Shown piece after piece: positions 14,494 to 35,886 of a stretch of DNA of 64,000 bases. The notes beneath the pieces were generated by a model that saw only the letters and a program-made list of their open reading frames with translations, did no database searches and was not told where the DNA came from. Where the stretch lies: assembly GCA_046760145.1 (NCBI GenBank), contig JBHIDO010000001.1, forward strand, positions 947-64,946. Reading direction: 5' to 3'. This DNA is from Candidatus Aenigmatarchaeota archaeon. GTDB taxonomy: Archaea > Aenigmatarchaeota > Aenigmatarchaeia > Aenigmatarchaeales > Aenigmatarchaeaceae. Position 1 is the first letter of the stretch. Each line of letters starts with the position of its first letter. The translations under genes and the position numbers were made by a program.

Positions 14494-16632
14494 ATGTTTA
14501 CTAAAATTCGTAAGAGAGATGGGAGGATAGTTGATTTTCAACCAGAAAAAATTACAAATGCTATTTTTAAAGCAGCTGTTGCTGTTGGTGGTTCTGATAG
14601 AGAACTAGCAGAAAAATTGTCAAAAAAGGTTGTTGAAATAGCAGAAAGCAGATTTAAAGATAAAACACCAAATGTAGAAGATATACAAGATATTGTTGAA
14701 GAAGTTTTAATTAAATCTGGTCATGATAGAACTGCTAAAGCTTATATATTATATAGACAAGAAAGGAAAAATATCAGAGATGCTAAAGCTGTTTTCTATG
14801 GTGTAACAGATGATTTGAAATTATCATTAAACGCAATAAAAGTTTTAGAAAAAAGATATTTAATGAAAGATGAAAATGGTAAAGTGATAGAAACTCCAAA
14901 ACAATTATTTAGAAGAGTTGCAAAAGCAATTGCATCTGCAGACTTGTTATATGATCAGAATGCTGATGTTAAAAAAACTGAAAGAGATTTCTATAATATG
15001 ATGGCAAATTTAGAATTCTTGCCAAATTCTCCTACATTAATGAATGCTGGAACAGAATTAGGACAATTATCTGCTTGTTTTGTTTTGCCAGTAGGAGATT
15101 CAATGGAAGAGATATTTGAATCAATAAAACACACCGCACTAATTCATAAATCTGGTGGTGGAACAGGTTTTAGTTTTTCAAGATTAAGACCAAAAGGAGA
15201 TATAGTTAAGACAACTGGAGGAATTGCGTCTGGTCCTTTGACGTTTATGAGTGTTTTTAATTCTGCAACCGAAGCTGTTAAACAGGGTGGTAGAAGAAGG
15301 GGAGCAAACATGGGAATGTTAAGAGTTGATCATCCTGATATTCTTGATTTTATAATTGCAAAGGAAAAGGAAGGAATTTTCAATAATTTCAATTTATCGG
15401 TTGCATTAACAGAAGACTTTATGAAAGCTGTTGAAAATAATAAAGAATACAAATTAATTAACCCCAGAACAGAAGAGATTGTAAAGGAAATTAATGCAAA
15501 AACTGTTTTTGATATGATTGTTGCAATGGCTTGGAAAAACGGAGAACCGGGGATAGTGTTTCTTGATAGGATTAACAAAGATAATCCAACCCCCCATTTA
15601 GGAGAAATTGAATCAACAAACCCCTGCGGCGAACAACCATTATTACCATATGAATCCTGCAATTTGGGGTCAATTAATCTAGCAAAAATGGTTGAATATG
15701 GGGAAATTGACTGGTACAAATTAAGAGGAATTGTTCATAATGCGGTCCATTTTCTTGATAATGTTATTGACCTTAACAAATACCCCATTGACGAAATTGA
15801 GGAAATGACAAAAATTAACAGAAAGATTGGTTTGGGTGTTATGGGGTTTGCAGACATGCTAATTCAATTAGGAATTCCTTATAATTCTGATGAAGCTGTT
15901 GTATTAGCTGAAAAAATAATGCAATTTATTTATGTTGAAGCAAGGAAAAAGTCAGAAGAACTAGGAAAACAAAGAGGATCTTTCCCTGCATTTGAAAAAA
16001 GTAAATTAAACAACGGAAATTATGAAGCAATGAGAAACGCAACTGTTACAACAGTAGCACCCACCGGATCAATAAGTATAATAGCTGGTTGCTCTTCAGG
16101 AATAGAACCATTGTTTGCAATAAGTTTTGTTAGAAATGTGATGGAAGGAACAGATTTACTAGAAATAAATCCAATCTTTGAAGCATTAGCAAGAAAAGAA
16201 GGGTTTTATTCACATGAATTAATGAGAGAAATTGCAAAAGGGGGTAGTTTAAAAGATTTAGAAATACCAGAAATAATTAAAAAAGTTTTTGTAACTGCTC
16301 ATGATATTTCACCGGAATGGCATATAAAAATACAAGCAGCTTTTCAGAAATATACTGACAATGCTGTTTCTAAAACAATTAATTTCCCACAAAATGCAAC
16401 TCCAGATGACATTGCAAATGCCTATTGGTTAGCTTATCAACTTGGTTGTAAAGGATTAACGGTTTATAGAGATAAGAGTAGGGAAACACAAGTCCTTAAT
16501 ATAATGGAAGAAGAGAAAAGGAAAATAATAATTCCAGAAAAACAAAATCCTAAATCAGTAAAAATTCCTAAAAAAGTAAAAGTAAAAGCTGATTCAGATT
16601 ATTCTGGTGGTTGTAGTAATTGTAAGGTTTAG
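14494..16632 (+). CDS. nrdJ: Ribonucleoside-triphosphate/diphosphate reductase, adenosylcobalamin-dependent (class II, NrdJ) with N-terminal ATP-cone
   Basis: ATP-cone start ([24 protein letters not shown]). Catalytic [22 protein letters not shown]-terminal CSNCKV. 712 aa. Confidence 0.85.
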
Positions 16633-16862
16633 AATTTCGGACTATAATGTGTTTTAGTTTTCTTAATACCATTTATTGTTCTTATTTTATTGAAAATTAA
16701 ATCAATAAGATGTTCATAATTTCTTACTTCTACCATAAGAATTGCATCATCTGTTCCAAATAAAGCGTATGATTCTTTAATTTCTTCATATCTTCTTAGA
16801 GACCCTACTATTTCTTTGTAAGGTTTATTCAACTTCAAGAAAATAATTGCTCTATCATCCAT
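16629..16862 (-). CDS. Stand-alone AsnC/Lrp-type ligand-binding (RAM) domain protein
   Basis: 77 aa. [42 protein letters not shown] matches the C-terminal regulatory domain of Lrp/AsnC, without HTH. Confidence 0.5.
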
Positions 16863-16885
16863 ATTTATTAATTGAACAAGAAAAT

Positions 16886-17839
16886 TTAAATTATTAATTT
16901 TCCATTTTTCATAATTAATTTCTTACCAAACCAGATTGTAGGTTTTTTAATAATTCCGTCTAAATGAACATTACTCTTATTTTTTCCACCAAGAGATTTA
17001 TTATCCCCAAATGCAACATGACATGTCCCCATAACCTTTTCATCTAATAAAACATTTCCAATAATCTTAGCTTTTGAATTTAATCCAATAGAAAATTCAG
17101 CTATTGTAGTTGAATTTTTATCAGATTTTTTAAAAATATTTTTTAATTTATTTGCATTTTTTCCAAATATATTAATTATTTTTCCATTTTCCACATCAAT
17201 TATTAACGGGGATTTTAAAACCCCTACTCCAACCATTGCACCATCTATTACTAGTCTACCGTTTGATCCGTTTTCTAGTGGTGCTATCCCACATTCCCCT
17301 GCCGGTAAATTATGCAAACTTCCAATATGATCCATTATCCCGTCATCTGACTGTGGTTCTCTTTTATCATATTTTATTTTGATATTTGTTCCATTTTTTG
17401 TTTTAATTTTAATAATAGAATATCTTTTATAATATTTTGATAATTTATTACAGATTTTTTGTAATTTTTTATAATTAATATTTAATGCTGGTATCATTTT
17501 TCTTGTTATATCTGGCATTGTTGCAATTCTTGCATTTTTTCTAGCTTTTCTAATAGCTTTTGTATGAGTTAGAGAAATTGTTGTAATACCTAAAATAATA
17601 TCATATTTTTTCATTAATCTTATTACATTTTGTGGTGGTTCTCTTCTAGTTTGTTTAGCTACCTTTATTTTAACTAATTTGATATTATCAGAAATCTTCT
17701 TACATTCATTATAAAACAATTTTGCAATTTCTTCTTTATTTTTATCATATATTATTAAAACTTTTTCTTTGGGTTTTAATAAAATTGCATTTTTTACTGC
17801 ATTTTCAATTGCTTTCATTAATATCACATTGTAGGACAT
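16886..17839 (-). CDS. Aminopeptidase, M29 (AmpS/aminopeptidase T)-like
   Basis: C-terminal GTCHVAFGDNKSLGGKNKSNVHLDG resembles the M29 HiAxG...N.S..H.D metal-site motif. Co-oriented with tldE/tldD. Confidence 0.45.
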   Translation of the reverse strand: MSYNVILMKAIENAVKNAILLKPKEKVLIIYDKNKEEIAKLFYNECKKISDNIKLVKIKVAKQTRREPPQNVIRLMKKYDIILGITTISLTHTKAIRKARKNARIATMPDITRKMIPALNINYKKLQKICNKLSKYYKRYSIIKIKTKNGTNIKIKYDKREPQSDDGIMDHIGSLHNLPAGECGIAPLENGSNGRLVIDGAMVGVGVLKSPLIIDVENGKIINIFGKNANKLKNIFKKSDKNSTTIAEFSIGLNSKAKIIGNVLLDEKVMGTCHVAFGDNKSLGGKNKSNVHLDGIIKKPTIWFGKKLIMKNGKLII

Positions 17840-19131
17840 GTTATATTAACATTTTTCACCAAAACAAATGGTGTAAGAACTGGAGTTTCAACTTCCCACC
17901 ACTGAATCCATTCTGGTTTATTAGAAATAGCTATGATGTTTTTTAAAATTCTTTCTAAGTTATCTGTAATTCTAATTCCTTTCAGGGATTTGGTTATATT
18001 CCCGTTTTTTATTAAAAAAATTCCATCTCTGGGAATTGTTGAAAAATCTCCTGTTCTGTAATTTTGAAATCTTGTATACCAAACATTTGTTATATATAGC
18101 CCTTCTTTAACCTTTTTAAATAATTTTTCTTTTGAAAATTTTCCAGGTTTTAAAATTATATTTGTTGGTATTGGAGCAATTAAACCAGCATTTCCTGTTG
18201 ACTTTGTTTTATATTTCTTTGCAGTAGACGTATTATGTAAATAGGTTTTTAAAATTCCTTTATTAATAATATTTGTTTTTTGGGTTGGATAACCTTCTGC
18301 ATCAAACATAGAAGAATGAAAACCTCCTTCTATACTTCCATTATCTGCTAAGTTAACTATTTTACTCCCTACTTCTTTTCCTAGTTTTTCTGCTAGAAAT
18401 GAAAATCCAGCATCAACTGCAAAAGCTGATGAAAATCTTCCAACAAGATTTAATAAATTAGCAATTGGCAATGAATCAAATATTACATCAAATTTACCCT
18501 TTCTACCTTTTTTGGGTTTTTTTGCTAATTTAGATATTAAACCCGCTTTTTCTCCTGCTTTTTCAGGATTAAAATTATTCAAGGTTCTAGCACAAGAAAC
18601 AGCATGACCAGATTCATCTTTTTCATTAAAAGCTCTTATGTAAATTTGGATGGTTGTAGATTTTTCTGATGCAGAAACATTTGAAGATGTTTCTAAATTA
18701 TTTTCAAATGAAGTTGTATAAAGGGTTCCTGCTGTTTTTTTACTATTTTGTAAAGCAGAATTAATTGCTGTTTGAACTTTATCTAAAATGTTTTCAGATA
18801 TATTTTCTATTTTTTTATCATAAAGATTTGGAATTTTTTTATATTTGAATGGGCCTTGTGCAATTCCAAAATAATCTGAACTTGGTTTTGTGGCCTTTGC
18901 ATATTTAATTAATTTTTTAATTGTTTCATTAACTGATTTTTCAGACAAATCATCTATTGTGGTTTGTACAACTCTACCTTTCCATGTTAAGAAAATATTT
19001 GACCTTAAAACATTCCAATTTTGTATAGCTGTTATGGAATTGTTTGCAAATTTTACTTGATTAGCTTTTCCTTTGGTGGTTTGAACTATTACATCATCTG
19101 CTCCTATTTTTAATGCTTTTTTAATTATCAT
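17824..19131 (-). CDS. tldE: TldE/PmbA-family metallopeptidase partner (start moved to internal MIIKKALKIG giving ATGA overlap with tldD)
   Basis: PmbA/TldD-fold length and C-terminal GGFHSSMFDAEGYPTQKTNIINKGILKTYLHN. Lacks HExxxH. Confidence 0.7.
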   Translation of the reverse strand: MIIKKALKIGADDVIVQTTKGKANQVKFANNSITAIQNWNVLRSNIFLTWKGRVVQTTIDDLSEKSVNETIKKLIKYAKATKPSSDYFGIAQGPFKYKKIPNLYDKKIENISENILDKVQTAINSALQNSKKTAGTLYTTSFENNLETSSNVSASEKSTTIQIYIRAFNEKDESGHAVSCARTLNNFNPEKAGEKAGLISKLAKKPKKGRKGKFDVIFDSLPIANLLNLVGRFSSAFAVDAGFSFLAEKLGKEVGSKIVNLADNGSIEGGFHSSMFDAEGYPTQKTNIINKGILKTYLHNTSTAKKYKTKSTGNAGLIAPIPTNIILKPGKFSKEKLFKKVKEGLYITNVWYTRFQNYRTGDFSTIPRDGIFLIKNGNITKSLKGIRITDNLERILKNIIAISNKPEWIQWWEVETPVLTPFVLVKNVNITCPTM

Positions 19132-20528
19132 ATTATCACTTTTCTTAATCTGATATGTGGTCCACCAAACCAAACAGGAACTCCTTGCATAGGCTCGCCC
19201 TTTCCACAAGTTCCAGTAGAAAATTCCAGTTTTTTTCCAATAGCATCAATTGCTTGATAAAGAGTTGGAGTATTTATTTCCAAAACAGGTCTTCTTATTA
19301 GACCATCTATTTTTCCATTAGTTATTTTATAAGATTCTAAACCAACATATCTTTGATTAAGCCTTTTATCATCAATATTCCATTCCATATAAGATTTAAT
19401 GTAAATTCCTCTTCTTACATCAATTAAATCATCAAAACTAAATTTTCCTGGTTTAAAATATGTATTTGACATTCTAACTATTGGTTCGTTTGACCAATTG
19501 TTCGCTCTAGCAGAACCATTACTGTTTGTTGAAAATTCAAAAGCAGTTTCTCTATTATGTAAGAATGTATTGATTACTCCATTTTTTATTAAAAATTTTT
19601 CTCTTGCTTCAACACCTTCATCATCATATAAATAAAAACCATAACTATTTGGGATGGTTGGATTATCAACCAAATTAACAACATCTGTTCCGATTTTATA
19701 TCCTAACATATTTCTTTTTACAAACGATTCTCCTGCTTGAGCTGCTTCTCTTCCTAATATTCTATCTGCTTCATATGGGTGTCCACAACTTTCATGTGCA
19801 ATTATACCTGCTAATTCTGGAGAAAGAATTACATCAAATTTACCTTTTGGAGTTTTTGGGGATTTTGAAATTTTAGATAAAATGTTTGCTTCCTTAACTA
19901 AGGTTTCTACTAATTTCCATTTTTTAAATAATTCCCAACCACCACTCCCACCATATTCGAACAGCCTTTGTTCTGTTGATCTGTTTGATAGAAATGTTAA
20001 CATATATTCAAAGTAAATTCTCGGAATCTTAGAATGTATCTTTGATCCTTCAGAATTTATAAAATATTTTTCTCTAAATTCATCTACTAATTCAAAATAT
20101 CTAACTGGTAGATTTAAGTTTGTTTTTAAAACTTCTTTTTCTATGTTTAATAATTCTTTTACCTTTTCCTCCAAACTAATATTCTTTATCTTAATTTTTT
20201 CTTTTACTTGATATTTTTTTCTATTTGTTTTTTCTCTAGATAATAAGATTGGTTTTTTAATAAATTTCCTCGAATATTTTGTCATTTTTATTGCAGAAGA
20301 AATTGCCTTTTTTATTTTTTCAAAATCTGGCTCGCTTATAAACGCTAAACCCATCGAACCTTTTTTAAATACTCTAATACATAATCCACTACTTTTAATA
20401 AAATTAGTTAAATCTACATTACCATTTTTTAAGATTATTTTATTAGATTCAAAGTTCTCTGATCTTACTTCAGCATAATCAGACAAACTGTTTGCATATT
20501 TTAATGCTTTTTCAGCTAAATCTAACAT
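19128..20528 (-). CDS. tldD: TldD-family metallopeptidase
   Basis: HESCGHPYEADRIL (HExxxH...E) motif. 466 aa. Confidence 0.8.
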   Translation of the reverse strand: MLDLAEKALKYANSLSDYAEVRSENFESNKIILKNGNVDLTNFIKSSGLCIRVFKKGSMGLAFISEPDFEKIKKAISSAIKMTKYSRKFIKKPILLSREKTNRKKYQVKEKIKIKNISLEEKVKELLNIEKEVLKTNLNLPVRYFELVDEFREKYFINSEGSKIHSKIPRIYFEYMLTFLSNRSTEQRLFEYGGSGGWELFKKWKLVETLVKEANILSKISKSPKTPKGKFDVILSPELAGIIAHESCGHPYEADRILGREAAQAGESFVKRNMLGYKIGTDVVNLVDNPTIPNSYGFYLYDDEGVEAREKFLIKNGVINTFLHNRETAFEFSTNSNGSARANNWSNEPIVRMSNTYFKPGKFSFDDLIDVRRGIYIKSYMEWNIDDKRLNQRYVGLESYKITNGKIDGLIRRPVLEINTPTLYQAIDAIGKKLEFSTGTCGKGEPMQGVPVWFGGPHIRLRKVII

Positions 20529-20561
20529 ATTTTCTAAATTTGTATTCTTAATTTATTAAAC

Positions 20562-21710
20562 TTACTTTAAATCATCCATTGTCAATACTTTGATTCTTTG
20601 TGGTGATCTAACTTTAACACTCCTCATTCCAACCATATATTTAATTCCATTATGAGAACCAAAGTTAACCATTCTTTGGTCTATATCACCATCTATTACA
20701 ACTGCTTTTGCATCCAATCTTTTCATTGTATTAAATATTTCTTTTATAGGAACCTTACCAAGAATTTCCATTTTTTCATTTAGAAAACAAGCAGCTCTTG
20801 TTCCAATCAAATCTTCCAAGATTGTTTTGAAAATTTTTTTCTTTTCCTCATCTATGTAAATTTTTCTCTTTCTTAATTTTTTAACATCTTTAATTTGATT
20901 AACTGGTACCTTTTCTCTTAAACATTTAAAAATTTCTTTTTTTGTTAATTCTTCTACTTCTTCACCACCTAAAGCTCTTGCAACAAAATCTATTTCACAA
21001 GTTGCCAATAATTCTTTTAATATCAAGTCTCCTCCCCTATCACCATCAAGAAATGCTGTTATTGACTTTTCCTTTGATAAGTCTATAATGGTTTGTGGTA
21101 CAGAGGTTCCTTCTATCGCAATTACGTTTTTAATACCATGCTTTAAAAGGTTAATAACATCTGCTCTTCCTTCTACTACTATAATTGAGTCATATGCATC
21201 TAAATTAGGACCTGCTGGTAATCCATTATAATTTTCAATTTCAGAACCCCTTACTGCTTCTTTAATTTGTTCAGATATTTCTTGGGTGTCTGGTACACCC
21301 TCATCAAACATCCTTTCTAATAATTCTTTTGCCCTATCAACAACATATTTTCTTTTCTCAATTCTAACATCATCTATTTTTTCTGTATAAATCTTAGCAT
21401 TAGAAGGTCCGATTCTTTCAATGGTTTCAATACAAGCCGCAATTAAGGATGTTTGAGAAGCATCAAGACTAGAAGGTATGATAATTTCTCCTGATGTTTT
21501 TCCATTTTCATTTTTTATTTCTACATCTATTCTTCCTACTCTTCCTGTTCTCTGCAATTCCCTTAAATCCATATCAGGACCTAATAAACCTTCTGTTTGT
21601 CCAAACACTGCTCCTATTACATCTGGTTTTTCTACAGTTCCTTCTGCTTCAAATCTAGCGTATATTATGTATTTTGAAGTGGTTTGCGCCAATTTACTCA
21701 TTAATATCAC
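20562..21710 (-). CDS. dnaG: Archaeal DnaG-type primase (Toprim)
   Basis: N-terminal KYIIYARFEAEGTVEKPDVIGAVFGQTEGLLG is the archaeal DnaG signature. Toprim IVVEGRADVINLL...DGDRGGD. Confidence 0.85.
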   Translation of the reverse strand: MILMSKLAQTTSKYIIYARFEAEGTVEKPDVIGAVFGQTEGLLGPDMDLRELQRTGRVGRIDVEIKNENGKTSGEIIIPSSLDASQTSLIAACIETIERIGPSNAKIYTEKIDDVRIEKRKYVVDRAKELLERMFDEGVPDTQEISEQIKEAVRGSEIENYNGLPAGPNLDAYDSIIVVEGRADVINLLKHGIKNVIAIEGTSVPQTIIDLSKEKSITAFLDGDRGGDLILKELLATCEIDFVARALGGEEVEELTKKEIFKCLREKVPVNQIKDVKKLRKRKIYIDEEKKKIFKTILEDLIGTRAACFLNEKMEILGKVPIKEIFNTMKRLDAKAVVIDGDIDQRMVNFGSHNGIKYMVGMRSVKVRSPQRIKVLTMDDLK

Positions 21711-22097: not shown

Positions 22098-22646
22098 TTA
22101 CAATTCTGATGATTCTTCTTTACAAGTATCACAAACCCATCTATCATTCACATTATGAAGCATTTCAGAGAAATTTCCACACAATTCACACTCACCCGAA
22201 TTAAACTCTTCAATAGTAGAGGGTTCACCTTCTATGAATAATCTTTCTCTTAAAATTTCAATTGCAGCTGGTGCAACTTTTGCAATCTCTCTATCAGAAA
22301 TAATTCCTACTAATCTTCCTAGAGAAACAACTGGTATTCTTTCATAACCATACTTTGTCATTGTTCTTGCTACATCTGCCAAATCATTATCAGAAGAACA
22401 AGTAATTAAAGGTGTGTTCATTATCTCCTTTAATTTTATTTCAGATGGTTTCATATCTTTAGCAACAACTTTGTTAACAACATCTTCCCTGGTAACAATA
22501 CCAATTGGTTTGTTTCCTTCACAAATTATTACAGATCCCACATCTTCTTTTTTCATTAATCTAGATCCTTCGAGAACTGTTTGAGAAGGTCTTGCGGTTA
22601 CAACTCTTGCTACCATTGCATCTTTAACTTGAATTCCTGTTGGCAT
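22098..22646 (-). CDS. CBS-pair domain protein with C-terminal Zn ribbon
   Basis: Two CBS repeats (VKDAMVARVVTARPSQT..., IKLKEIMNTPLITCSSD...) and C-terminal CELCGN...CDTCK. Confidence 0.6.
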   Translation of the reverse strand: MPTGIQVKDAMVARVVTARPSQTVLEGSRLMKKEDVGSVIICEGNKPIGIVTREDVVNKVVAKDMKPSEIKLKEIMNTPLITCSSDNDLADVARTMTKYGYERIPVVSLGRLVGIISDREIAKVAPAAIEILRERLFIEGEPSTIEEFNSGECELCGNFSEMLHNVNDRWVCDTCKEESSEL

Positions 22647-22708: not shown

Positions 22709-23449
22709 TTGATTCGACAATCTATATATATGGATACGAAAACTTTAGCAAGAGAAAGACTTTCTAGAAAAATAGCAGGAGAAATTGTTTTAAGTCATGA
22801 TGCTGGAAAAACTATCCAAAAATGGAGAAATATTTTTAAAATTCCTCAAAGAAAATTAGCAGATGAAATAGGAATAATGCCTTCTGTTATTTCTGATTAT
22901 GAAAACGGTAGAAGGAAGTCTCCTGGTATCAAAGTAATAAAAAGACTAGTAAATGCAATGATAAGTTTAGATGAAAAATCTGGTGGTAAAATAATTCAAG
23001 ATTTTTCAGCCTTTCCTACAAAAACTGTTCTCTCTGATGGTATTTTAGATATGAAGGAATTTAAAACACCTATTAGTATTAAAGATTTTTGTAAAATTAT
23101 AGAAAGTCCTGTTATAGTTAGAAGTGATTTAATAAATAATAAGCTTTATGGTTATACAATAATTGATAGTATGAAGGCTATTATTGAATTATCACCAATG
23201 GATATGGTTAAATTATATGGATTAACAAGTGAAAGAGCCTTGATATTTACTGGTGCTCATAGAGGAAAAAGTTCAATGGTTGCTTTGAAAGTAACTAATT
23301 TAAGGCCTGGTTTAGTAGTTTTACATGGTTCTGAAGGTATTGATGATTTAGCAAGAAGAATAGCTGAATTAGAAAGCATACCTGTAGGAATAACTAAAAT
23401 AAAAAATGTTGATCAACTTATAAAAACATTAAAAAGAAAAACAAATTAG
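22709..23449 (+). CDS. XRE-type HTH domain protein with uncharacterised C-terminal domain
   Basis: IPQRKLADEIGIMPSVISDYENGRRKSPG is a helix-turn-helix of XRE type. Divergent from CBS gene. Confidence 0.5.
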   Translation: MIRQSIYMDTKTLARERLSRKIAGEIVLSHDAGKTIQKWRNIFKIPQRKLADEIGIMPSVISDYENGRRKSPGIKVIKRLVNAMISLDEKSGGKIIQDFSAFPTKTVLSDGILDMKEFKTPISIKDFCKIIESPVIVRSDLINNKLYGYTIIDSMKAIIELSPMDMVKLYGLTSERALIFTGAHRGKSSMVALKVTNLRPGLVVLHGSEGIDDLARRIAELESIPVGITKIKNVDQLIKTLKRKTN

Positions 23450-23459
23450 TTCCTCCCCT

Positions 23460-23778
23460 TCATTTCTTATCGAAGTTGAATTCGAAAAATAAAATATTTT
23501 TATTAATAAATTAATAACATTGTTATAAGAAATAAAGGTAAATAAGTTACTTATATTTCTTATGAAACCTTTAAAGGAAATAAAAGGGTGTGTTTTTTAT
23601 AAAAATAACAGTGTTATAAAAATAAATTTCTTTACATGTGAATATTTTACGAATAAAATTTAATTTTCCATGTGAAATAAAGGGGTTAACGTGAAGATAA
23701 TTATAAATATATTCATTCTTATTAAAAATCTTACTTCAAAAGAAATAAAGGTTTCCATAAGAAACTGAGGTATTAATA
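23460..23778. promoter_or_regulatory. Candidate oriC / origin-recognition-box region upstream of orc1/cdc6
   Basis: About 320 bp non-coding, very AT-rich. Contains CCATGTGAAATAAAGGGGTTAACGTGAAGATAA (23668-23700), which aligns to the archaeal ORB (ttCCAGTGGAAACgAAAGGGGT). Four GAAATAAAGG repeats (about 23531, 23578, 23674, 23743). Mini-ORB-like TACATGTGAATATTTTAC. Confidence 0.5.
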
Positions 23779-24969
23779 ATGAAAAAAATAGAAAAAATTT
23801 TTAATAAATTTCTTGATTCAAAACCCATATTTATAAATCGAGAAGCTCTTTCAATTTCATTTACACCAGAAGATATACCACATAGAGAAGCTCAAATAAA
23901 TGAGTTAGGAAGAATTCTGGCTCCGGCCTTAAAAAACGGAAAGCCTAGCAATGTATTCATATATGGAAGATGCGGAACAGGAAAAACTTTAATTTCTAAA
24001 TTGGTAGGATCAGAACTAGAAAAAATTAGTCAGTCTAATGGTCAAACCATTAAAGTTATTTATGTTAATTGTAAAATGAAAAAATCAGCTGATACAGAAT
24101 ATAGATTATTGGCTGGTTTAGCTAAGAAATTTGGAAAACAAGTTCCATTTACAGGATTGCCAACAGATCAAATTTATAATGCTTTTTTTGAAAGTTTGGA
24201 CAAAAGAAAACAAACTCTTATTTTAATTATAGATGAGATTGATGCTTTAGTTCAAAAAACAGGAGACGAAATTCTTTATAATCTAACAAGGATAAACCAA
24301 GATCTTAAAAACTCTAAATTATCTATTATAGGGATAACAAATAATCTGAGTTTTATTGAATCTTTAGATCCAAGGGTAAGAAGTTCCTTAGGTGAAGAAG
24401 AACTAATATTTCCACCTTATAATGCTTTACAATTACAAGATATTTTAAGGCAAAGATCTTCTATTGCTTTTGTATCTGGAGTTTTAGAAGAAGGAGTAAT
24501 TGAAAAATGTGCTGCTTTGGCTGCTCAGGAGCATGGAGATGCTAGAAGAGCTTTAGAATTGTTAAGGGTTGCTGGAGAACTAGCTGAGAGGAATGCAGAT
24601 GAAAAAATAACAACAGAGCATGTTGACCTAGCTCAGAAAAAAATTGATATAGATAGTGTTTTAGAAACAGTAAAAACCCAACCAAAACAAAGCCAGGCTG
24701 TTTTATATGCAATAATACAACTAGATAAAAAGAATATAGAAACAAGTGATGTAATTAATAAATATCAAGAAATTTGTAAGCAACATGGTTTAAGGGTATT
24801 AACACAAAGAAGAGTTTCAGATTTAATATCAGAACTATATTTATTTGGTATAATTGATTCAAAGATAATATCTAAGGGGAGATATGGGAGGACAAGAGTT
24901 ATAAATTTAAATTTAACTAATAATGTTAAGAAAAAACTAAAAAATCTTCTTAACCAAATATTCTTATGA
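23779..24969 (+). CDS. orc1: Orc1/Cdc6 replication initiator
   Basis: FTPEDIPHREAQINEL (Cdc6 N-terminal motif), Walker A GRCGTGKT, Walker B IIDEID, C-terminal winged helix. 396 aa. GAGGT RBS upstream. Confidence 0.9.
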   Translation: MKKIEKIFNKFLDSKPIFINREALSISFTPEDIPHREAQINELGRILAPALKNGKPSNVFIYGRCGTGKTLISKLVGSELEKISQSNGQTIKVIYVNCKMKKSADTEYRLLAGLAKKFGKQVPFTGLPTDQIYNAFFESLDKRKQTLILIIDEIDALVQKTGDEILYNLTRINQDLKNSKLSIIGITNNLSFIESLDPRVRSSLGEEELIFPPYNALQLQDILRQRSSIAFVSGVLEEGVIEKCAALAAQEHGDARRALELLRVAGELAERNADEKITTEHVDLAQKKIDIDSVLETVKTQPKQSQAVLYAIIQLDKKNIETSDVINKYQEICKQHGLRVLTQRRVSDLISELYLFGIIDSKIISKGRYGRTRVINLNLTNNVKKKLKNLLNQIFL

Positions 24970-25868
24970 ATTATTTAACCGAATTAATAAAACTAGGATT
25001 TTTAGTTGAACCTAATGCAGCAGAATTATTAAAAAATTTAAATCAAGGTGAATTTGAAAAACTATTAGAAAATTTGAAAAAGGAAGAGTCATTAGTTTTA
25101 TCAGAAAAATTTATAAAAAAAATATTTAAAAAAGAAATAAAAATTATAAAAACCTTTATTCCAATCAAAAAACTTTCTATTCAAGATTTTGTTAATATGT
25201 TAAATAACAGATATAATTTCTTACAAAACATTTTAGTTAATAAATTAGCAATGGAAAATATAATTTCTATTAACAAAGTTAGTTCTGGGAATACTACAAT
25301 AATAGGAATGGTAAAAATAAGACAAGAAAAAAATAACAATCTTATTGTATGGTTAGAAGATCAGACAGGTGAAATTGAAACAATTATACCCAAGATGTTG
25401 GGAGAAAAAATAAATTTAGATGATGTTATTGCAATTACAGGTAATATTTCAAACAAAAAATTATACGGAGAAAAGATAATATTTCCTGATATCCCAATAA
25501 GAAGAGTAAATTATTCTGATGATTCAATTAAAATTGCTTTTATTTTGAATGGAAAAGATTATGATGCTGATTATTTAATTTATGAAAATAAAATCAAAGA
25601 CAAATTAAATAATAAAATTCTTGAAATTACAAACCCATCAATTGTAAGCATAGGGGGAATAATAATTTTGATTGCTCATAAATTTGAACCATTTGAAATT
25701 TTAAAAAAGAGATATATTCATAAAGATAAAACTGATTTTTTAATTGATAATGTTCCAGATATTTTATTTACCGATAGAAAAATTAATACAAACTATAAAG
25801 GAGTAACTATTGTTTCAGGAAACAATTTAATAAATTTAAAGACTAGAGAAGTAATTTCTTTAGAATAG
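24966..25868 (+). CDS. PolD small-subunit (DP1)-like protein: N-terminal DP1-type helical domain + OB fold, lacking the calcineurin-like phosphodiesterase domain
   Basis: N-terminus LTELIKLGFLVEPNAAELL matches the DP1 N-terminal pattern (G[YF]L[IV].P.A..LL). OB-fold-like TTIIGMVKIRQEKNNNLIVWLEDQTGEIETIIP...DVIAITGNI. No GDxHG/GNH[DE] phosphoesterase motifs. 300 aa. Conserved cdc6-DP1 position. Confidence 0.4.
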   Translation: MNYLTELIKLGFLVEPNAAELLKNLNQGEFEKLLENLKKEESLVLSEKFIKKIFKKEIKIIKTFIPIKKLSIQDFVNMLNNRYNFLQNILVNKLAMENIISINKVSSGNTTIIGMVKIRQEKNNNLIVWLEDQTGEIETIIPKMLGEKINLDDVIAITGNISNKKLYGEKIIFPDIPIRRVNYSDDSIKIAFILNGKDYDADYLIYENKIKDKLNNKILEITNPSIVSIGGIIILIAHKFEPFEILKKRYIHKDKTDFLIDNVPDILFTDRKINTNYKGVTIVSGNNLINLKTREVISLE

Positions 25869-25905: not shown

Positions 25906-28542
25906 ATGGAAATACAGATTCTTGATTGTGATTATGTAATGCTACAAGGAAAGCCATTGATAAGAATATTTGGAAAAACAATGAATGGTGAATCAATTTG
26001 TGTTTTTTATGATAAGTTCTTACCATATTTTTACCTTTATGGAGATGAAGAGGAATATCCTAGAATTGCTAAGGAAATAAATAAAAGATATGATGTTAAA
26101 ATTGAGGTTGTTAAAAGAATTCTTCCAATTGGATATCAAAAACCAGTAAATATATTAAAAATAATTGGCAAAGATCCAGGTAAAACTCCAGAAATTAGAG
26201 AATTTGTAAGAAAATTTGGAACCCCTTATGAAGCAGATATTCTTTTTAAATATAGATTCATGGCAGATTTTGATTTGAAAGGAATGGGATGGATTAATGT
26301 TAAAGGAAAATTTAGAAAAACAAATACAGTTAAATGCAGGGCTTTGGCTGCAGATAATATAAAACCAATAGAGATTTTGAAAAATGCTCCATTAAAATAT
26401 TTAGCAATAGATTTAGAATGTTTAGGAGGAGAAGACAGATTAGTAACACCTGAGAAGGATTCAATTATTATAGTAAGTTTGGCATTTTATCCTACATACA
26501 AGGGAAAAAACCAAATGGTTTTGCTAGCAAAACCAATACAAACAGGAAAAGATGTTATTGGTCATAGTGATGAAGCGGATATGTTAAAAAACCTTTTGGA
26601 AATAATAAAAGATTTTGATCCTGATATTATAACTGGTTATAACATAAATAATTTTGATTTACCATTTCTAATAAAAAGATTAGAAATATTAAAATTACCA
26701 AGAGATTTAGGAAGGTCAGAAAAAAATGCTTTTTGTAGAAAGTTAATTTATTCACACATTCCTACTGTTTCTGGAAGAGTTATTGTTGATTCTTTTGAAA
26801 TTTTAAAAAGAGATCCTTGGGTGAAATTTAAAAGATATGATTTAGGCACGGTAGCAAGAGAATTATTAGATATAGAAAAGTTGGAAATGGGTGGACCACG
26901 CGAAATAAGAGAACTTTGGAATGGAAAAGATATGAAAAAACTTGTCGATTATGCAAGAAGAGATGCTGAACTTGCTTTGAAATTAATTATTGAAAAAAGA
27001 ATTTTAGACAAATTTTTCGAGTTATCTAAAATATCAGGTCTATTATTGCAAGAAAGTTTAGGAGGCCAGTCACAAAGACATGAATTCAAATTACTAAGAG
27101 AGTTTGGAAAAAGAAAATTTATTATGCCTTGTAAACCAGGACAAAACACATTAGAAAAAAGAATAAAAGAAAGAACAAATTTAGGATTGAAAGGTGCTTT
27201 AGTTTTAGAACCAGAAGTTGGTTTGTATAATAATATTATTGTTTTAGATTTTACAAGCCTATATCCTTCTTTAATAAGAGCATTTAACATATGCCCAACC
27301 ACATTTCTTGTAAATGGTGAAGAAATTGATCATATAGAATCACCTTATGGAACAAAGTTTGTTAAACCAAGTATTAGAAAAGGCATATTACCAAAAATTC
27401 TTGATGAATTAATAAACACAAGGGCTGATGTAAGAAAACAGGTTAAATTAACCGAAGATAAAGAGGAGAAAAGAACTTTAAATGCAAAACAACTTGCTTT
27501 GAAGGATATGGCAAATTCTCTTTATGGATATACTGGTTACATAAGATCAAGACTTTATGTTATTCAAATTGCAAATACAATTACTGCTTTTGGTAGAGAT
27601 ACAATAAGAAAAACTAAAAAACTAATCGAGGAAAACTTTCCTGTAAAGGTTTTGTATGCTGATACAGATTCTGTTTTTATAAAATCTGATGCAAAAACTT
27701 TAGAAGAAGCTGAAAAATTAGGAAAAGAAATTTCACAATTTATAACAAATAAATTAAAAGGTTTGGATCTAAAATTTGAAAAAATATTCAAAACATTTTT
27801 GATTTTATCAAAGAAAAGATATGCGGGTTGGGCATTTGAAAGAGAAAAAGATGGATGGAAAGATAGTTTGGATATGAAAGGAATTGAGACTATAAGAAGA
27901 GACTGGTGCGAATTAACATCTGAGACGATGTTAAAGGTTTTAAAAATTGTTTTGAAAGAACAAAACATTACAAAAGCATGTAAATATGTTAGAAGTGTTA
28001 TAGAAGATTTATCTAAAAATAAAGTCCCATTAGAAAAGTTAGCTGTTGTAAAAGGAATTACAAAATCTTTGGATTCTTATGATGGAATTCAGCCACATGT
28101 TGAATTGGCTAAAAAAATTCTAAAAAGAGACCCTACCAGAGGGTCAATGGTTGGTGAAAGATTAGGGTATGTGATAATAAAAGGAAATCAGTTATTGTCA
28201 AAAAGAGCAGAAGACCCAAATTATGTTAAGGAAAAAGGATTGAAAATTGATTCTCAATATTATATTCAAAATCAATTGTTACCTCCTTTAGAAAGAATAT
28301 TTGAGGTTTGTGGAGTAACATCTTCTGAATTATTAGAAGGTGTTAGACAATTAAGTTTAATGGACTCTTTCAAAGTAAAATCACCAGAAGAAACCATTTT
28401 AAAAGAATTTGATTCTGTTACATGTAAGGCTTGTCATTGGACTTTCAGAAGACCTCCGTTAAAGGGTTCTTGTCCACGTTGTGATTCTAAATTGTATTTT
28501 TCTGGAAATGGTTCAATTGGAAAAAGTGTTGAATTTAACTAA
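25906..28542 (+). CDS. polB: Family-B DNA polymerase (PolB) with 3'-5' exonuclease domain and C-terminal Zn finger
   Basis: Exo I LAIDLEC, Exo II YNINNFDLPFL, Exo III YARRDAELA. Pol motif A DFTSLYPSLI, motif B KQLALKDMANSLYGYTGY, motif C YADTDSVF. C-terminal CKACHW...CPRCDS. Confidence 0.95.
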   Translation: MEIQILDCDYVMLQGKPLIRIFGKTMNGESICVFYDKFLPYFYLYGDEEEYPRIAKEINKRYDVKIEVVKRILPIGYQKPVNILKIIGKDPGKTPEIREFVRKFGTPYEADILFKYRFMADFDLKGMGWINVKGKFRKTNTVKCRALAADNIKPIEILKNAPLKYLAIDLECLGGEDRLVTPEKDSIIIVSLAFYPTYKGKNQMVLLAKPIQTGKDVIGHSDEADMLKNLLEIIKDFDPDIITGYNINNFDLPFLIKRLEILKLPRDLGRSEKNAFCRKLIYSHIPTVSGRVIVDSFEILKRDPWVKFKRYDLGTVARELLDIEKLEMGGPREIRELWNGKDMKKLVDYARRDAELALKLIIEKRILDKFFELSKISGLLLQESLGGQSQRHEFKLLREFGKRKFIMPCKPGQNTLEKRIKERTNLGLKGALVLEPEVGLYNNIIVLDFTSLYPSLIRAFNICPTTFLVNGEEIDHIESPYGTKFVKPSIRKGILPKILDELINTRADVRKQVKLTEDKEEKRTLNAKQLALKDMANSLYGYTGYIRSRLYVIQIANTITAFGRDTIRKTKKLIEENFPVKVLYADTDSVFIKSDAKTLEEAEKLGKEISQFITNKLKGLDLKFEKIFKTFLILSKKRYAGWAFEREKDGWKDSLDMKGIETIRRDWCELTSETMLKVLKIVLKEQNITKACKYVRSVIEDLSKNKVPLEKLAVVKGITKSLDSYDGIQPHVELAKKILKRDPTRGSMVGERLGYVIIKGNQLLSKRAEDPNYVKEKGLKIDSQYYIQNQLLPPLERIFEVCGVTSSELLEGVRQLSLMDSFKVKSPEETILKEFDSVTCKACHWTFRRPPLKGSCPRCDSKLYFSGNGSIGKSVEFN

Positions 28543-32335: not shown

Positions 32336-33286
32336 ATGAGAATAGGCATAATTGGATGTGGGATAAATGGTGCATATTTGGGTTGGAAGTTATCTAGAAA
32401 AAATGATGTTACAATTTTTGAGCAGAAAAGAAAAATAGGAAAAGAGGTATGTTCTGGTTTAGTTTCTGAAAGGTTGTGGAATTTTATACCTAAAAATAAA
32501 AAATTAATTAAAAACACAATTAATTCAGCTATTTTACACTATCCTAATAAAGACGTTAAATTGGATTTTTCACCCAAAATATTTGTTTTAGAACATAAAT
32601 TATTAGATAGATATGTTGTATCTTTAGCAAAGAAAAATAACATAAAGATATTTTTGAATAAGAAAGTAACAAAAGTAACTCAAAACAAAAAACCTATAAT
32701 ATATGCTAGAAAATCGTTTGAATTTGATTATGTTATTGGTTGTGATGGTGCATTATCAATAACAAGAAAATCCTTAGGGATTGAAGATCCTAAATATAGG
32801 CTAGGAATGCTAACATATGTTAACAAAAAGGATAAATCTGATTTTTTTGAAACTTGGCCAACCAAACATGGTTTTTTTTGGAGAATACCTAGAGGATCTA
32901 AAGTTGAGTATGGTATATTAGAAAGAACAGATAGAGCAAAGAGGATGTTTCAGAGTTTTCTCAAGAAAAAGAAAATAAAGACAAGGAAAATTTACTCACG
33001 TGTTATACCATTAGGATTAACTAAACTTTATAAAGGAAAAATAGCTTTGACTGGAGATGCTTGTGGCCTAACAAAACCATGGTCTGGTGGGGGCATAATT
33101 TGGGGTTTATTAGCAGATGATATTTTATTAAGAACATTTCCAAACTTTAGGAAGTATGAGAATGAAGTAAGAAGATTATTTGAAGCAAATATATTCTTTT
33201 CAAATTTAACAGCTAGTTTAGCTTTTAAAATATCTAAATTACCATTACCTAGAAAATATTTGTTTGATAGTGATTGGGTATTTTAA
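32336..33286 (+). CDS. FAD-dependent geranylgeranyl-reductase-family oxidoreductase (start at MRIGIIG)
   Basis: Rossmann dinucleotide motif IGIIGCGINGAYLG, then EVCSG. Size about 315 aa typical of archaeal GGR-family short forms. Confidence 0.55.
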   Translation: MRIGIIGCGINGAYLGWKLSRKNDVTIFEQKRKIGKEVCSGLVSERLWNFIPKNKKLIKNTINSAILHYPNKDVKLDFSPKIFVLEHKLLDRYVVSLAKKNNIKIFLNKKVTKVTQNKKPIIYARKSFEFDYVIGCDGALSITRKSLGIEDPKYRLGMLTYVNKKDKSDFFETWPTKHGFFWRIPRGSKVEYGILERTDRAKRMFQSFLKKKKIKTRKIYSRVIPLGLTKLYKGKIALTGDACGLTKPWSGGGIIWGLLADDILLRTFPNFRKYENEVRRLFEANIFFSNLTASLAFKISKLPLPRKYLFDSDWVF

Positions 33287-34242
33287 AATAATTTTTTCAA
33301 AATTTCTATTGTTTTTTCAACAGACTCTTTACTATTATATTTTGGTTTCCATCCTAGTTGCTTTATTTTATCTATAGAAAGTAGCATGTATTTTACATCA
33401 CCTTTCCAACCACGTCCTCCATCAACCCCTCCTGTAAATTTATATTCAATATTTTCTAATCCCAATCCCTTGACAACCAAGTCTGCTATTTCTTTAACAG
33501 TTATCCTATCTTCAGAACCAAGATTAAAGATTTCAACCCTATTTTTAGCATTTTTCTCACTAAAAATCATTCCATCAATGCAATCGTCTATATAAAGATA
33601 AGATTTAGACTGGGTTCCATCACCTAGAATCTCAAGTTCTTTAGGGTTTTGTTTTAATTTTTTAATAAAATCAAATATAACACCATGACCACTTCTTTCT
33701 CCAATAACATTTGCAAACCTTAATAAAACAGATTTCATATCAAACGTATAACAATAACTCGATATTAGGGCTTCTGCAGCTAATTTTGATGCTGCATAAA
33801 GTGAAATAGGAATAAGTGGCCCATAATCTTCTTTGGTTGGAATTTGAGTTGCATCACCATAAACTGCTGAAGTAGAAGTAAATATTATATTTTTTATTCC
33901 TTTTTTTCTCATTGCTTCTAAGAGATTATAGGTAGCAACTATATTCTGATCAAAATGAACTCTTGAATCTTCAGCCCCAATTTTAACATCTGGATTTGCT
34001 GCAAGATGATAAACCTTTTCAACATCATTTAAGCATTTTTCAATATCTTCTGGTTTTAACAAATCCCCCACAACAACCTCAAAATTTGGATTACCTTCAT
34101 TATGTTTTATATTTTTCATGTTTCCAGAACTCAGATTGTCTAGCACTATTACTTTTTCATTCATAGAAAGTAGTTTATCAACTAAATGAGAACCTATAAA
34201 TCCAGCTCCACCCGTAACTAATATCTTAGACATAATATTCAT
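33283..34242 (-). CDS. NAD-dependent sugar-nucleotide epimerase/dehydratase (GalE/extended SDR family)
   Basis: ILVTGGAGFIGSHLVDKLL (GxxGxxG), catalytic YAASKLAAE (YxxxK), SDR size. Confidence 0.8.
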   Translation of the reverse strand: MNIMSKILVTGGAGFIGSHLVDKLLSMNEKVIVLDNLSSGNMKNIKHNEGNPNFEVVVGDLLKPEDIEKCLNDVEKVYHLAANPDVKIGAEDSRVHFDQNIVATYNLLEAMRKKGIKNIIFTSTSAVYGDATQIPTKEDYGPLIPISLYAASKLAAEALISSYCYTFDMKSVLLRFANVIGERSGHGVIFDFIKKLKQNPKELEILGDGTQSKSYLYIDDCIDGMIFSEKNAKNRVEIFNLGSEDRITVKEIADLVVKGLGLENIEYKFTGGVDGGRGWKGDVKYMLLSIDKIKQLGWKPKYNSKESVEKTIEILKKLF

Positions 34243-34280: not shown

Positions 34281-35795
34281 ATGAAATTACAAAGAAAAAT
34301 TATTTCGAATGTTTTTTATTATTTTTTAGATATTGTTACTTTGTCAATTTTCGGTTATATTTTCTGGATATTAATGGGTAAGATGTTAGTACCAGAACAA
34401 TATGGAATTTTGTTAACAGTGGTTTCTTTATTTTATGTTTTTGTTTCAATTACTACTTTGGGTTTTCATGAAGCTTTGCCTAAGTTTATATCTGAATTGG
34501 TAAAGAAAAATAAATTATCACAAATTAGATCAATGATAACTTATTCGATAAAATTTGTAACTATTACATCATTACTATTATCTGTAGCAATTTTCTTTTT
34601 ATCAGAAAATACTTCTTTGATTTTATATGGTTCCGAGAAAATGATAATACCCCTTCAATTCCTTTCAATACTTTTATTTTCTGGTGTTTTGGCATATATT
34701 TCTAAGTCAATTTTACAAGGATTTCAAAATTTCAAAAAATTATTTCTAGCTGATTTAACAGGTAATATATTAAAAATAATAATAGCATTTGTTTTGGTTT
34801 TTATTGGCCTTGGAGTTATAGGTGGAATTATTTCATTGGTTGTATGGTTTATATCAGTTGTAATTGTTTCTATAATTGTGATAATAAAAATATTTAAATC
34901 TAAATTAAAAAAAATAAATTTTGATAAAAAGAAATTTTTCAAATTCAGTTTACTTAGTGTTGTATCATTATCGTCTTTGCTTTTGATACAACAAGGAGGA
35001 ATAATAATTCTAGGATTTTTATCAACTTTAGAATCTGTTGCATTTTTAGGAGTTGCATTTCTTGTTGGTCAAATAGTTATTTTAATTCCAATTGTTATAA
35101 TGGGATCACTATTTCCAACTTTTTCTAGTTTTTGGGTAAAAGAAAAGAATAAGTTCACAAAATTATTATCAATTTCAATTAAAGTAATTGTTTTGACAGT
35201 TTTACCACTTGTTATTTTATTTACAATGCTTTCTGATTGGATAGTTAAAATTTTATATACAACAGAATATTTACCAGCATCATTTTTGTTTCCAGGATTT
35301 CTTTTTGGAAGTTTCTTATTAGGAATAAATTTATTGATTTTAATAGCATTATATTCTGCAAATAAACCCAATTTAAGAGCTTTAACACTTTTTATTGGTA
35401 TGATTATAAACATTTCTTTATGCTTTATTTTAATACCAACATTTGGTGCACAGGGTGCTGTTTTTGCATTTTTAACATCCCAAATCTTTACATTAGTGTT
35501 TTCACTTTTGTTTATTAGTAAATTAATTCAATTAAAATTTTCAAGAAGAAGTGTTCTAATTATACCGGTAAACATAATATTCTTAATTTTATTATTTTTC
35601 ATAAAATTAACTGAAATATTAGTATTAAAGGTTTTGGTAATTTTATTTTCAATAATGATTTACATAATTTTGTTGTTTGCATTAAAAATAATAAACAGAA
35701 ATGATTTAGATATTTTAAATTATTTTCCTGATAAACTAGGTTTCGAGGCTTTTAAAAGGGTAGTTAAGAGGATGATAAATTTTTTTAAGAGATAA
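34281..35795 (+). CDS. Wzx/MOP-superfamily oligosaccharide flippase (polysaccharide biosynthesis protein)
   Basis: 504 aa, about 14 TM helices, layout of Polysacc_synt/Wzx (AglR-like). First gene of glycosylation island. Confidence 0.6.
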   Translation: MKLQRKIISNVFYYFLDIVTLSIFGYIFWILMGKMLVPEQYGILLTVVSLFYVFVSITTLGFHEALPKFISELVKKNKLSQIRSMITYSIKFVTITSLLLSVAIFFLSENTSLILYGSEKMIIPLQFLSILLFSGVLAYISKSILQGFQNFKKLFLADLTGNILKIIIAFVLVFIGLGVIGGIISLVVWFISVVIVSIIVIIKIFKSKLKKINFDKKKFFKFSLLSVVSLSSLLLIQQGGIIILGFLSTLESVAFLGVAFLVGQIVILIPIVIMGSLFPTFSSFWVKEKNKFTKLLSISIKVIVLTVLPLVILFTMLSDWIVKILYTTEYLPASFLFPGFLFGSFLLGINLLILIALYSANKPNLRALTLFIGMIINISLCFILIPTFGAQGAVFAFLTSQIFTLVFSLLFISKLIQLKFSRRSVLIIPVNIIFLILLFFIKLTEILVLKVLVILFSIMIYIILLFALKIINRNDLDILNYFPDKLGFEAFKRVVKRMINFFKR

Positions 35796-35886
35796 GCTTA
35801 AAAAACTTTGTAGTTAATACTTTTAAGTAGTAAAAGATAAAAATATATTTAAACATAAATAATATAACAGCGTTATAAGTGATATT

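Follow-up and report, generated by a model that had tools for sequence, protein, structure and literature searches.

The non-coding gap upstream of the initiator gene orc1 in a 64,000-nucleotide stretch of Candidatus Aenigmatarchaeota archaeon DNA (the window, with positions counted from its first letter) is predicted to be a chromosomal replication origin. Judged from its sequence, the gap at 23450-23778 represents, with a probability of roughly 0.85, an origin of the oriC1 type, i.e., one organised around an Orc1-1 initiator and its origin recognition boxes (ORBs), which would overlap the promoter and leader of orc1. A candidate oriC had been proposed at this place in a first-pass annotation of the DNA, and the proposal gains support from the class of the Orc1 protein, the clustering of ORBs, the presence of an inverted ORB pair, the AT-rich stretch, and a layout that is conserved among relatives.

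The gap measures 329 bp, from the stop codon of a helix-turn-helix (HTH) gene (TAG, 23447-23449) to the ATG of orc1 (23779), and its A+T content is 79.3%, compared to 71.9% for the whole window (G+C about 28%). The earlier description of an AT-rich non-coding region of about 320 bp upstream of orc1/cdc6 therefore holds: the longest open reading frame in the gap encodes no more than 33 amino acids, and scans with Rfam and for tRNA genes yielded nothing across the window, gap included. A scan for sigma-70 promoters and terminators was also made; these signals are not enriched, and they are irrelevant for an archaeon.

The Orc1 initiator and the ORB sites of the gap

By its sequence, the gene downstream of the gap is assigned to the Orc1-1 class of initiators. 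The protein carries the Pfam domains AAA, Cdc6_lid, and Cdc6_C, and scores 517.9 against the NCBIfam ORC1-type equivalog NF001625, for which the cutoff is 501. It matches Cdc6-1/Orc1-1 of Sulfolobus solfataricus (2QBY_A, E=5e-104) and ORC1 of Aeropyrum pernix (2V1U_A, E=2e-100), and both 2QBY and 2V1U are Orc1 structures solved on ORB/origin DNA. In the alignment with Sulfolobus Orc1-1, the Walker A (GTGKT) and Walker B (DEID) motifs are kept, as are the Gly-Leu of the initiator-specific motif (ISM), the HTH arginine (TQRR), and the wing arginine (GRYG), with residue numbers of the crystal chain converted to those of the full-length Sulfolobus protein by an inferred offset. Residues of the ISM, HTH, and wing are the determinants of mini-ORB binding (PMC3089459).

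ORB sites were located with a 21-nt weight matrix built from the orc1-upstream regions of 73 other loci, with the window left out; its consensus across DPANN relatives is TTCCACAGGAAATAAAGGGGT, which shares register and core with ORB1/2 of Pyrococcus furiosus and with the Sulfolobus mini-ORB. The matrix finds seven hits of 13-27 bits in 23454-23773 and three weaker lone hits elsewhere in the 63.7 kb; a single hit of at least 13 bits lies outside the gap. Two further counts point the same way: the extended G-string motif TTYCANNNGAAAYNAAGGGG has two matches in the window at up to two mismatches, both in the gap and on opposite strands (0.26 expected), and GAAATAAAGG occurs in three exact copies (23529, 23674, 23742), all of them in the gap, against 0.58 expected in the whole 64 kb. 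The elements of the gap are listed below in order of position; A1 denotes an alignment of 10 sequences, the gap and its counterparts from nine relatives with 67-75% Orc1 identity.

23454-23474, minus strand: ORB-L, a full ORB (TTCGATAAGAAATGAAGGGGA); 23.7 bits, one mismatch to the extended pattern; conserved A1 block
23476-23516, no strand: candidate duplex-unwinding element, in which 23487-23516 is 100% A+T
23513-23527, no strand: palindrome 1 (AATAACATTGTTATA; family consensus TATAACAnTGTTATA); most conserved A1 block
23521-23541, plus strand: weak ORB-like site (TGTTATAAGAAATAAAGGTAA) with the first GAAATAAAGG copy; 13.2 bits
23547-23567, minus strand: mini-ORB (TTTCATAAGAAATATAAGTAA) without G-string; 13.1 bits; matches TTYCATNNGAAAY
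23569-23589, plus strand: ORB-like site (CTTTAAAGGAAATAAAAGGGT), the fourth repeat of the first-pass annotation, with one extra A; 17.9 bits; conserved GGAAAtaAAaGGGTG block in A1
23604-23618, no strand: palindrome 2 (AATAACAGTGTTATA); repeat D1; A1 block
23631-23643, plus strand: mini-ORB-like site (TTTACATGTGAAT), the mini-ORB of the first-pass annotation; direct repeat D7 with the ORB-R core
23666-23686, plus strand: ORB-R, a full ORB (TTCCATGTGAAATAAAGGGGT), followed by TTAACGTGAAG at 23686-23696; 26.7 bits, the best in the window
23695-23712, plus strand: putative TATA box/B recognition element (BRE) of orc1 (AGATAATTATAAATATAT), inferred; conserved AAATTATAAATAT block directly 3' of ORB-R in A1
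23734-23754, plus strand: ORB-like site (CTTCAAAAGAAATAAAGGTTT) with the third GAAATAAAGG copy, in the presumed 5' leader; 21.0 bits
23753-23773, plus strand: ORB-like site (TTCCATAAGAAACTGAGGTAT) overlapping a Shine-Dalgarno-like GAGGT; 21.7 bits

The two full ORBs, minus-strand ORB-L and plus-strand ORB-R, are inverted relative to each other and flank the AT-rich stretch, so that the defining layout of an origin is present. ORB-L, whose G-string extends to 23451 (AGGGGAGGA), has its mini-ORB end directed inward and its G-string outward; ORB-R is unique in the window at up to three mismatches. The 100% A+T stretch at 23487-23516 lies immediately inside ORB-L; by nearest-neighbour energy, only one other 30-mer in the 64 kb is less stable. 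It is a candidate for the duplex-unwinding element that had earlier been suggested as something to search for. Three of the remaining sites have features of their own: the site at 23521-23541 overlaps the right arm of palindrome 1 and contains GAAAyAAAGGT, which is invariant in close relatives; the one at 23631-23643 scores under the threshold of the 21-nt matrix, and elements of the type TTCAyGTGAA recur among relatives; the one at 23734-23754 aligns with a block that relatives carry beside the ribosome-binding site.

Most of the individual elements named in the first-pass annotation are found in the gap. The ORB-like element including its G-string is present exactly as CCATGTGAAATAAAGGGGTT at 23668-23687, although it is the extended motif that exceeds chance and not the 13-mer alone, and the mini-ORB string TACATGTGAATATTTTAC is found exactly at 23633-23650. 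Four GAAATAAAGG repeats had been counted; three are exact, whereas the fourth, at 23577, reads GAAATAAAAGG. Missing from that annotation were ORB-L, which begins before its start coordinate, the minus-strand mini-ORB at 23547-23567, and both copies of the palindrome.

Conservation, strand asymmetry and rival explanations

The architecture was compared across 80 loci (L001-L080; one genome per species, Orc1 50-75% identical to that of the window), the metagenome-assembled genomes of which are labelled Aenigmatarchaeota, Micrarchaeota, Woesearchaeota, Pacearchaeota, Nanoarchaeia, and Nanohaloarchaea, among others. Over these loci, the 450 bp before orc1 contain 7.2 ORBs per kb, compared to 0.05 per kb in the remaining sequence, and motif density upstream of the relatives' orc1 is about 100 times background. 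About 70 other DPANN species share one layout: a distal minus-strand ORB, an AT-rich spacer, a proximal plus-strand ORB, and then orc1, with the TTCCA ends of the ORB pair inward and the G-strings outward. At a strict 18 bits the inverted layout is seen in 50 of 69 loci, and most of the remaining loci show it at 12 bits. At closer range, alignment A1 resolves into discrete conserved blocks split by unalignable AT-rich DNA: ORB-L; palindrome 1 with GAAAyAAAGGT; GGAAAtaAAaGGGTG; palindrome 2; ORB-R with TTmAyGTGAAg and AAATTATAAATAT; and the ORB-like block beside the ribosome-binding site. Some 25 nt before the orc1 start codon, an ORB is kept across lineages while its strand differs, being plus in the clade of the window and minus in many others (L010, L012-L014, L018, L026-L029, L037, L051, L062, and L079 compared with the window and L001-L003). 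Since it is kept in either orientation, this ORB must be more than a ribosome-binding (Shine-Dalgarno) site.

How such an origin would work can be modelled by homology to Sulfolobus, Aeropyrum, and Pyrococcus (PMC12141716; PMC3089459; PMC1904270), which is the source of everything said here on how Orc1 binds, MCM is loaded, DNA is unwound, and orc1 regulates itself, and on what the palindrome does. On each ORB, a single Orc1 monomer would sit in a fixed orientation, with its winged helix placed on the TTCCAnnnGAAA core and the ISM of its AAA+ domain facing the G-string. ATP-bound Orc1 at the inverted ORB-L and ORB-R, with their cores inward, would recruit MCM hexamers into the interval between them, and melting would begin in the 100% A+T stretch beside ORB-L. 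The weaker ORB and mini-ORB sites would add cooperative Orc1 binding, and Orc1 on the sites at 23734-23773, downstream of the putative TATA box, could repress orc1. The palindrome, which by position resembles the ucm/UBP element of Sulfolobus oriC1, is probably bound by a further dimeric factor.

Strand asymmetry offers a second kind of evidence. The raw cumulative GC-skew minimum of the window lies at 22-24 kb, but it tracks the switch in gene strand: gene orientation diverges from the gap, which in itself favours an origin, with 18 of 26 genes to the left on the minus strand and 22 of 31 to the right on the plus strand, counts that are non-independent owing to operon structure. Skew at fourfold-degenerate sites (GC4 and AT4) was therefore pooled over the 80 loci and the window, with genes grouped by direction relative to the orc1-upstream site:

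Genes transcribed away from the site: GC4 skew -0.069; AT4 skew +0.027; GC4 skew without core genes -0.141
Genes transcribed toward the site: GC4 skew +0.027; AT4 skew -0.096; GC4 skew without core genes +0.023

In the pooled data, the coding strand of genes pointing away is enriched in C and A, that of genes pointing toward the site in G and T. The effect is a side-by-strand interaction, the pattern expected of replication-linked asymmetry, and it holds when conserved core genes are removed (p = 4e-8). The pooled data thus fit a switch of strand asymmetry at the orc1-upstream site, as supporting evidence only.

Several points weigh against the reading of the gap as a chromosomal origin. Within the window itself, third-position and fourfold-site skew show no significant difference between left and right when genes are split by strand. 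The pooled test was improvised and is open to confounding by gene identity or expression level. Compared to bacteria, the polarity it shows is inverted, with a presumed leading strand that is C-rich, so that a naive reading would fit a terminus. A C-rich leading strand, i.e., an inverted GC-skew polarity, has been reported for haloarchaea (PMC1868953). As to the motif, the iterative matrix search started from ORB-R of the window itself and was retrained on relatives only afterwards, and the Pyrococcus 13-mer mini-ORB gives 36 matches in the window at up to three mismatches against 36 expected. The likeness of a single site is hence at chance level in such AT-rich DNA, which makes the 13-mer unusable as evidence. 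Finally, architecture is no proof of use: some archaea can dispense with a bona fide oriC (PMC5663688).

This last point leads to the strongest competing explanation, in which the ORB cluster is an operator or promoter through which Orc1 autoregulates orc1 and nothing more, the origin being dormant or vestigial and replication starting elsewhere or by recombination. It is improbable, although it would account for the two ORB-like sites between the putative TATA box and the orc1 ATG and for the lack of replication-linked skew in the window alone, and it has a precedent in Thermococcus kodakarensis, where Cdc6 and the presumed origin are reported to be dispensable (PMC5663688). Repression, however, needs no inverted ORB pair around a maximally unstable AT stretch with constrained spacing, and yet this layout is kept in about 70 species. 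The pooled strand asymmetry also switches at the orc1-upstream site. DPANN genomes of about 0.8-1 Mb are, moreover, unlikely to hold many alternative origins, and neither a second orc1 nor a second ORB cluster was found within the 64 kb.

The gap could also be the origin of an integrated plasmid or virus that brought its own orc1, given that additional orc1-origin pairs in haloarchaea and Sulfolobus often derive from captured extrachromosomal elements (PMC4010727). For the gap this is very unlikely: the Orc1 protein passes the cutoff of the ORC1-type equivalog and is closest to chromosomal Orc1-1 proteins, the flanks consist of core housekeeping genes (DnaG, DP1-like, PolB, SecDF, TldD), many of which recur beside orc1 in several DPANN lineages, no integrase or tRNA gene was found near orc1, and composition is uniform across the window. 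The suspicion that the repeats are chance products of low-complexity DNA, or plain Shine-Dalgarno or promoter sequence, is understandable in a window of 72% A+T in which the canonical 13-mer occurs at chance and one GAAA..AGGT block overlaps the ribosome-binding site, but it is refuted by clustering far above expectation and by sites kept in position and orientation across species, and G-string ORBs also lie about 300 bp from any start codon, while the ORB at -25 occurs in either orientation.

The 15-bp palindrome

One feature of the gap is apparently undescribed, namely the perfect 15-bp palindrome that is present in two copies; a full-text literature search for its sequence yielded nothing relevant. 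In A1, TAACA..GTTATA is invariant in all 10 aligned sequences, and the palindrome is more conserved than the ORBs. Its position is constrained as well, about 39 bp inside the left ORB and within the AT-rich interval: across 28 relatives, the spacer that separates the palindrome from the inner end of the left ORB is 39 bp long in the median (interquartile range 37-47), at 82% A+T, with a composition that is conserved and a sequence that is variable. In simpler relatives, the inter-ORB interval spans 85-97 bp and the palindrome lies close to its centre.

Of the 72 relatives scanned, about 35 carry the palindrome upstream of orc1 with zero to two mismatches, and many of these have an Orc1 only 55-60% identical to that of the window; the carriers include L003, L018, L022-L027, L030, L033, L039, L047, L058, and L078. 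Most carriers are labelled Aenigmatarchaeota or Micrarchaeota, and Woesearchaeota-type loci largely lack the element. A second copy is present, too, in most of the closest relatives (L001-L003, L005, L007, L008). Outside origins the palindrome is rare, with nine matches at up to one mismatch in about 870 kb, several of them intergenic. A third copy in the window, at 35863-35877, precedes the start codon of a B12-binding radical SAM gene by about 10 bp. This gene belongs to a tandem pair of paralogues (35887-38705) in polysaccharide-biosynthesis surroundings, adjoined by a flippase-like gene (34281-35795) and an epimerase gene (33283-34242).

A perfect palindrome points to a dimeric binder, and the element is probably the binding site of a further dimeric factor. 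By position, it parallels ucm, an essential motif inside the unwinding element of Sulfolobus oriC1 that is bound by UBP, a protein reported to be restricted to Sulfolobales and Desulfurococcales (PMC12141716). Both ucm and the palindrome are short, conserved non-ORB motifs between inverted ORBs in an AT-rich interval, with a few other intergenic sites. They differ in form: ucm is an 11-bp non-palindromic sequence (ATTATACAAAC), whereas the element described here is a perfect palindrome of 15 bp, and at up to one mismatch ucm is absent from 23450-23778 and occurs at chance frequency across the window. The more far-reaching proposal, that DPANN archaea of the Aenigmatarchaeota/Micrarchaeota type have in the palindrome an essential origin element not described before, on which a dimeric factor of its own would act after Orc1 binding as a functional analogue of ucm/UBP, is tentative and less likely than not.

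A candidate for the binder, with low probability, is the HTH and DRTGG-like regulator encoded at 22709-23449. Its predicted structure (mean pLDDT 82) has an N-terminal HTH of the Cro/C1 type and a C-terminal domain that is weakly DRTGG-like (Foldseek E ~4e-3). Most lineages with the palindrome have this gene no more than about 4 kb from orc1, in varying orientation, but the co-occurrence of gene and palindrome is confounded by phylogeny. In many Aenigmatarchaeota/Micrarchaeota-type relatives, the gene of a CBS-domain protein is often nearby as well. Together with the neighbouring CBS protein, such a regulator could couple nucleotide or energy status to origin firing. Two observations count against it, however. 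The recognition helix (PSVISDYEnGRRKSPG) is nearly invariant even where the palindrome reads TATTACA..TGTAATA, so that HTH protein and half-site do not covary, and the HTH gene's own promoter region in the window contains no palindrome. In the window, the CBS gene (22098-22646, minus strand) and the HTH gene (plus strand) form a divergent pair. NCBI places the start of the HTH protein at 22730 (239 aa), compared to the TTG at 22709 used here.

Gene neighbourhood and comparison with known origins

The replication genes of the window are grouped, with DnaG, orc1, the DP1-like gene, and PolB together around the predicted origin, which adds to the case for it:

14494-16632, plus strand: ribonucleotide reductase with ATP-cone (annotation)
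17824-20528, minus strand: two tandem PmbA/TldD paralogues (annotation)
20562-21710, minus strand: archaeal DnaG (annotation)
22098-22646, minus strand: CBS-domain protein with a C-terminal CxxC zinc ribbon (Pfam)
22709-23449, plus strand: HTH_3 protein (Pfam)
23450-23778, no strand: predicted-origin gap, non-coding
23779-24969, plus strand: orc1/cdc6 initiator of the Orc1-1 class by sequence, 396 aa (Pfam, NCBIfam, structure matches)
24966-25868, plus strand: truncated DP1-like gene, 300 aa, with OB-fold (homologue of the PolD small subunit/B-subunit; NF003118)
25906-28542, plus strand: family B DNA polymerase with a DP2-like C-terminal zinc finger (group B6 of PMC7544198)

To the left of the gap, 14494-21710 thus holds nucleotide and replication genes (ribonucleotide reductase, the PmbA/TldD pair, and DnaG).

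The order oriC-cdc6-DP1-like, which the first-pass annotation had noted, is right in substance, given that the gene after orc1 matches NF003118 (PolD small subunit DP1; E=4.6e-27), but the third gene is a PolB of group B6 and not DP2. The match covers residues 4-193 only, i.e., the N-terminal and OB parts, and domain-profile scans detected no phosphodiesterase domain in the 300-aa protein. The C-terminal CxxC...CxxC of PolB gives a weak match (NF003103, E=3.4e-4) to the zinc finger at the C-terminus of the large subunit of PolD. The DP1-like gene follows orc1 in most relatives. In Woesearchaeota-type relatives, orc1 is followed by a match to DP1, and some 6.1 kb downstream of orc1 there is a match to the zinc-finger query; judged by its position, the latter appears to mark the end of a DP2 gene, and these relatives would have kept orc1-DP1-DP2. 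If so, orc1-DP1-DP2 appears to be the ancestral order, with PolB now in the former DP2 slot beside the origin. The polymerase itself has been published as group B6-aenigma with an inactivated DP1, PolB replacing DP2 (PMC7544198), and the idea of PolB and the DP1-like protein as a new "eukaryote-like" polymerase was therefore dropped as already described.

Among known origins, oriC1 of Sulfolobus and Aeropyrum is one of the closest parallels. It, too, lies directly upstream of orc1-1, has ORBs with a TTCCAnnnGAAA-type core and a G-string, and contains two inverted ORBs around an AT-rich unwinding element, with a third ORB nearer the gene (PMC12141716). The initiators are highly similar, with the same contact residues in ISM, HTH, and wing (PMC3089459), and the Sulfolobus mini-ORB TTTCAGATGAAAC (PMC3089459) is in the same register as the window sites TTTCATAAGAAAT and TTCCATGTGAAAT. 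By comparison, the gap has a spacer of 3 nt between core and G-string (consensus TTCCAnnnGAAAtAAAGGGGT), more accessory weak ORBs, and a longer inter-ORB interval (191 bp), although this interval is about 85-97 bp in simpler relatives.

The oriC of Pyrococcus and other Thermococcales shares mini-ORB 13-mers in the same register (TTCCAGTGGAAAT compared to TTCCATGTGAAAT), two long inverted ORBs, and the order of origin, cdc6, and DP1 homologue (PMC1904270). The Pyrococcus ORB has a longer spacer before the G-string, and a second ORB cluster is located inside dp1, whereas no matrix hit of at least 10 bits occurs here in 24966-25868. Compared to cdc6-dp1-dp2 of Thermococcales, DP1 is truncated in the window and DP2 is replaced by PolB-B6 (PMC7544198).

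The literature searches made for this analysis turned up no DPANN archaeon with a mapped replication origin. The layout described here is the expected feature upstream of an orc1 gene, and the palindrome is the new element. As a conserved prediction, with a consensus ORB, an inverted pair, and a defined AT stretch, the gap could anchor growth-rate estimates from read depth (peak-to-trough ratio), and it would help to check metagenome assemblies and to plan Orc1/ORB biochemistry for uncultivated lineages. Among the most reduced archaeal genomes in this comparison, the Orc1-1/ORB system is kept with essentially no change, and the palindrome bears on a question raised by PMC12141716, i.e., whether additional sequence-specific factors act at the unwinding elements of archaea outside Sulfolobales.

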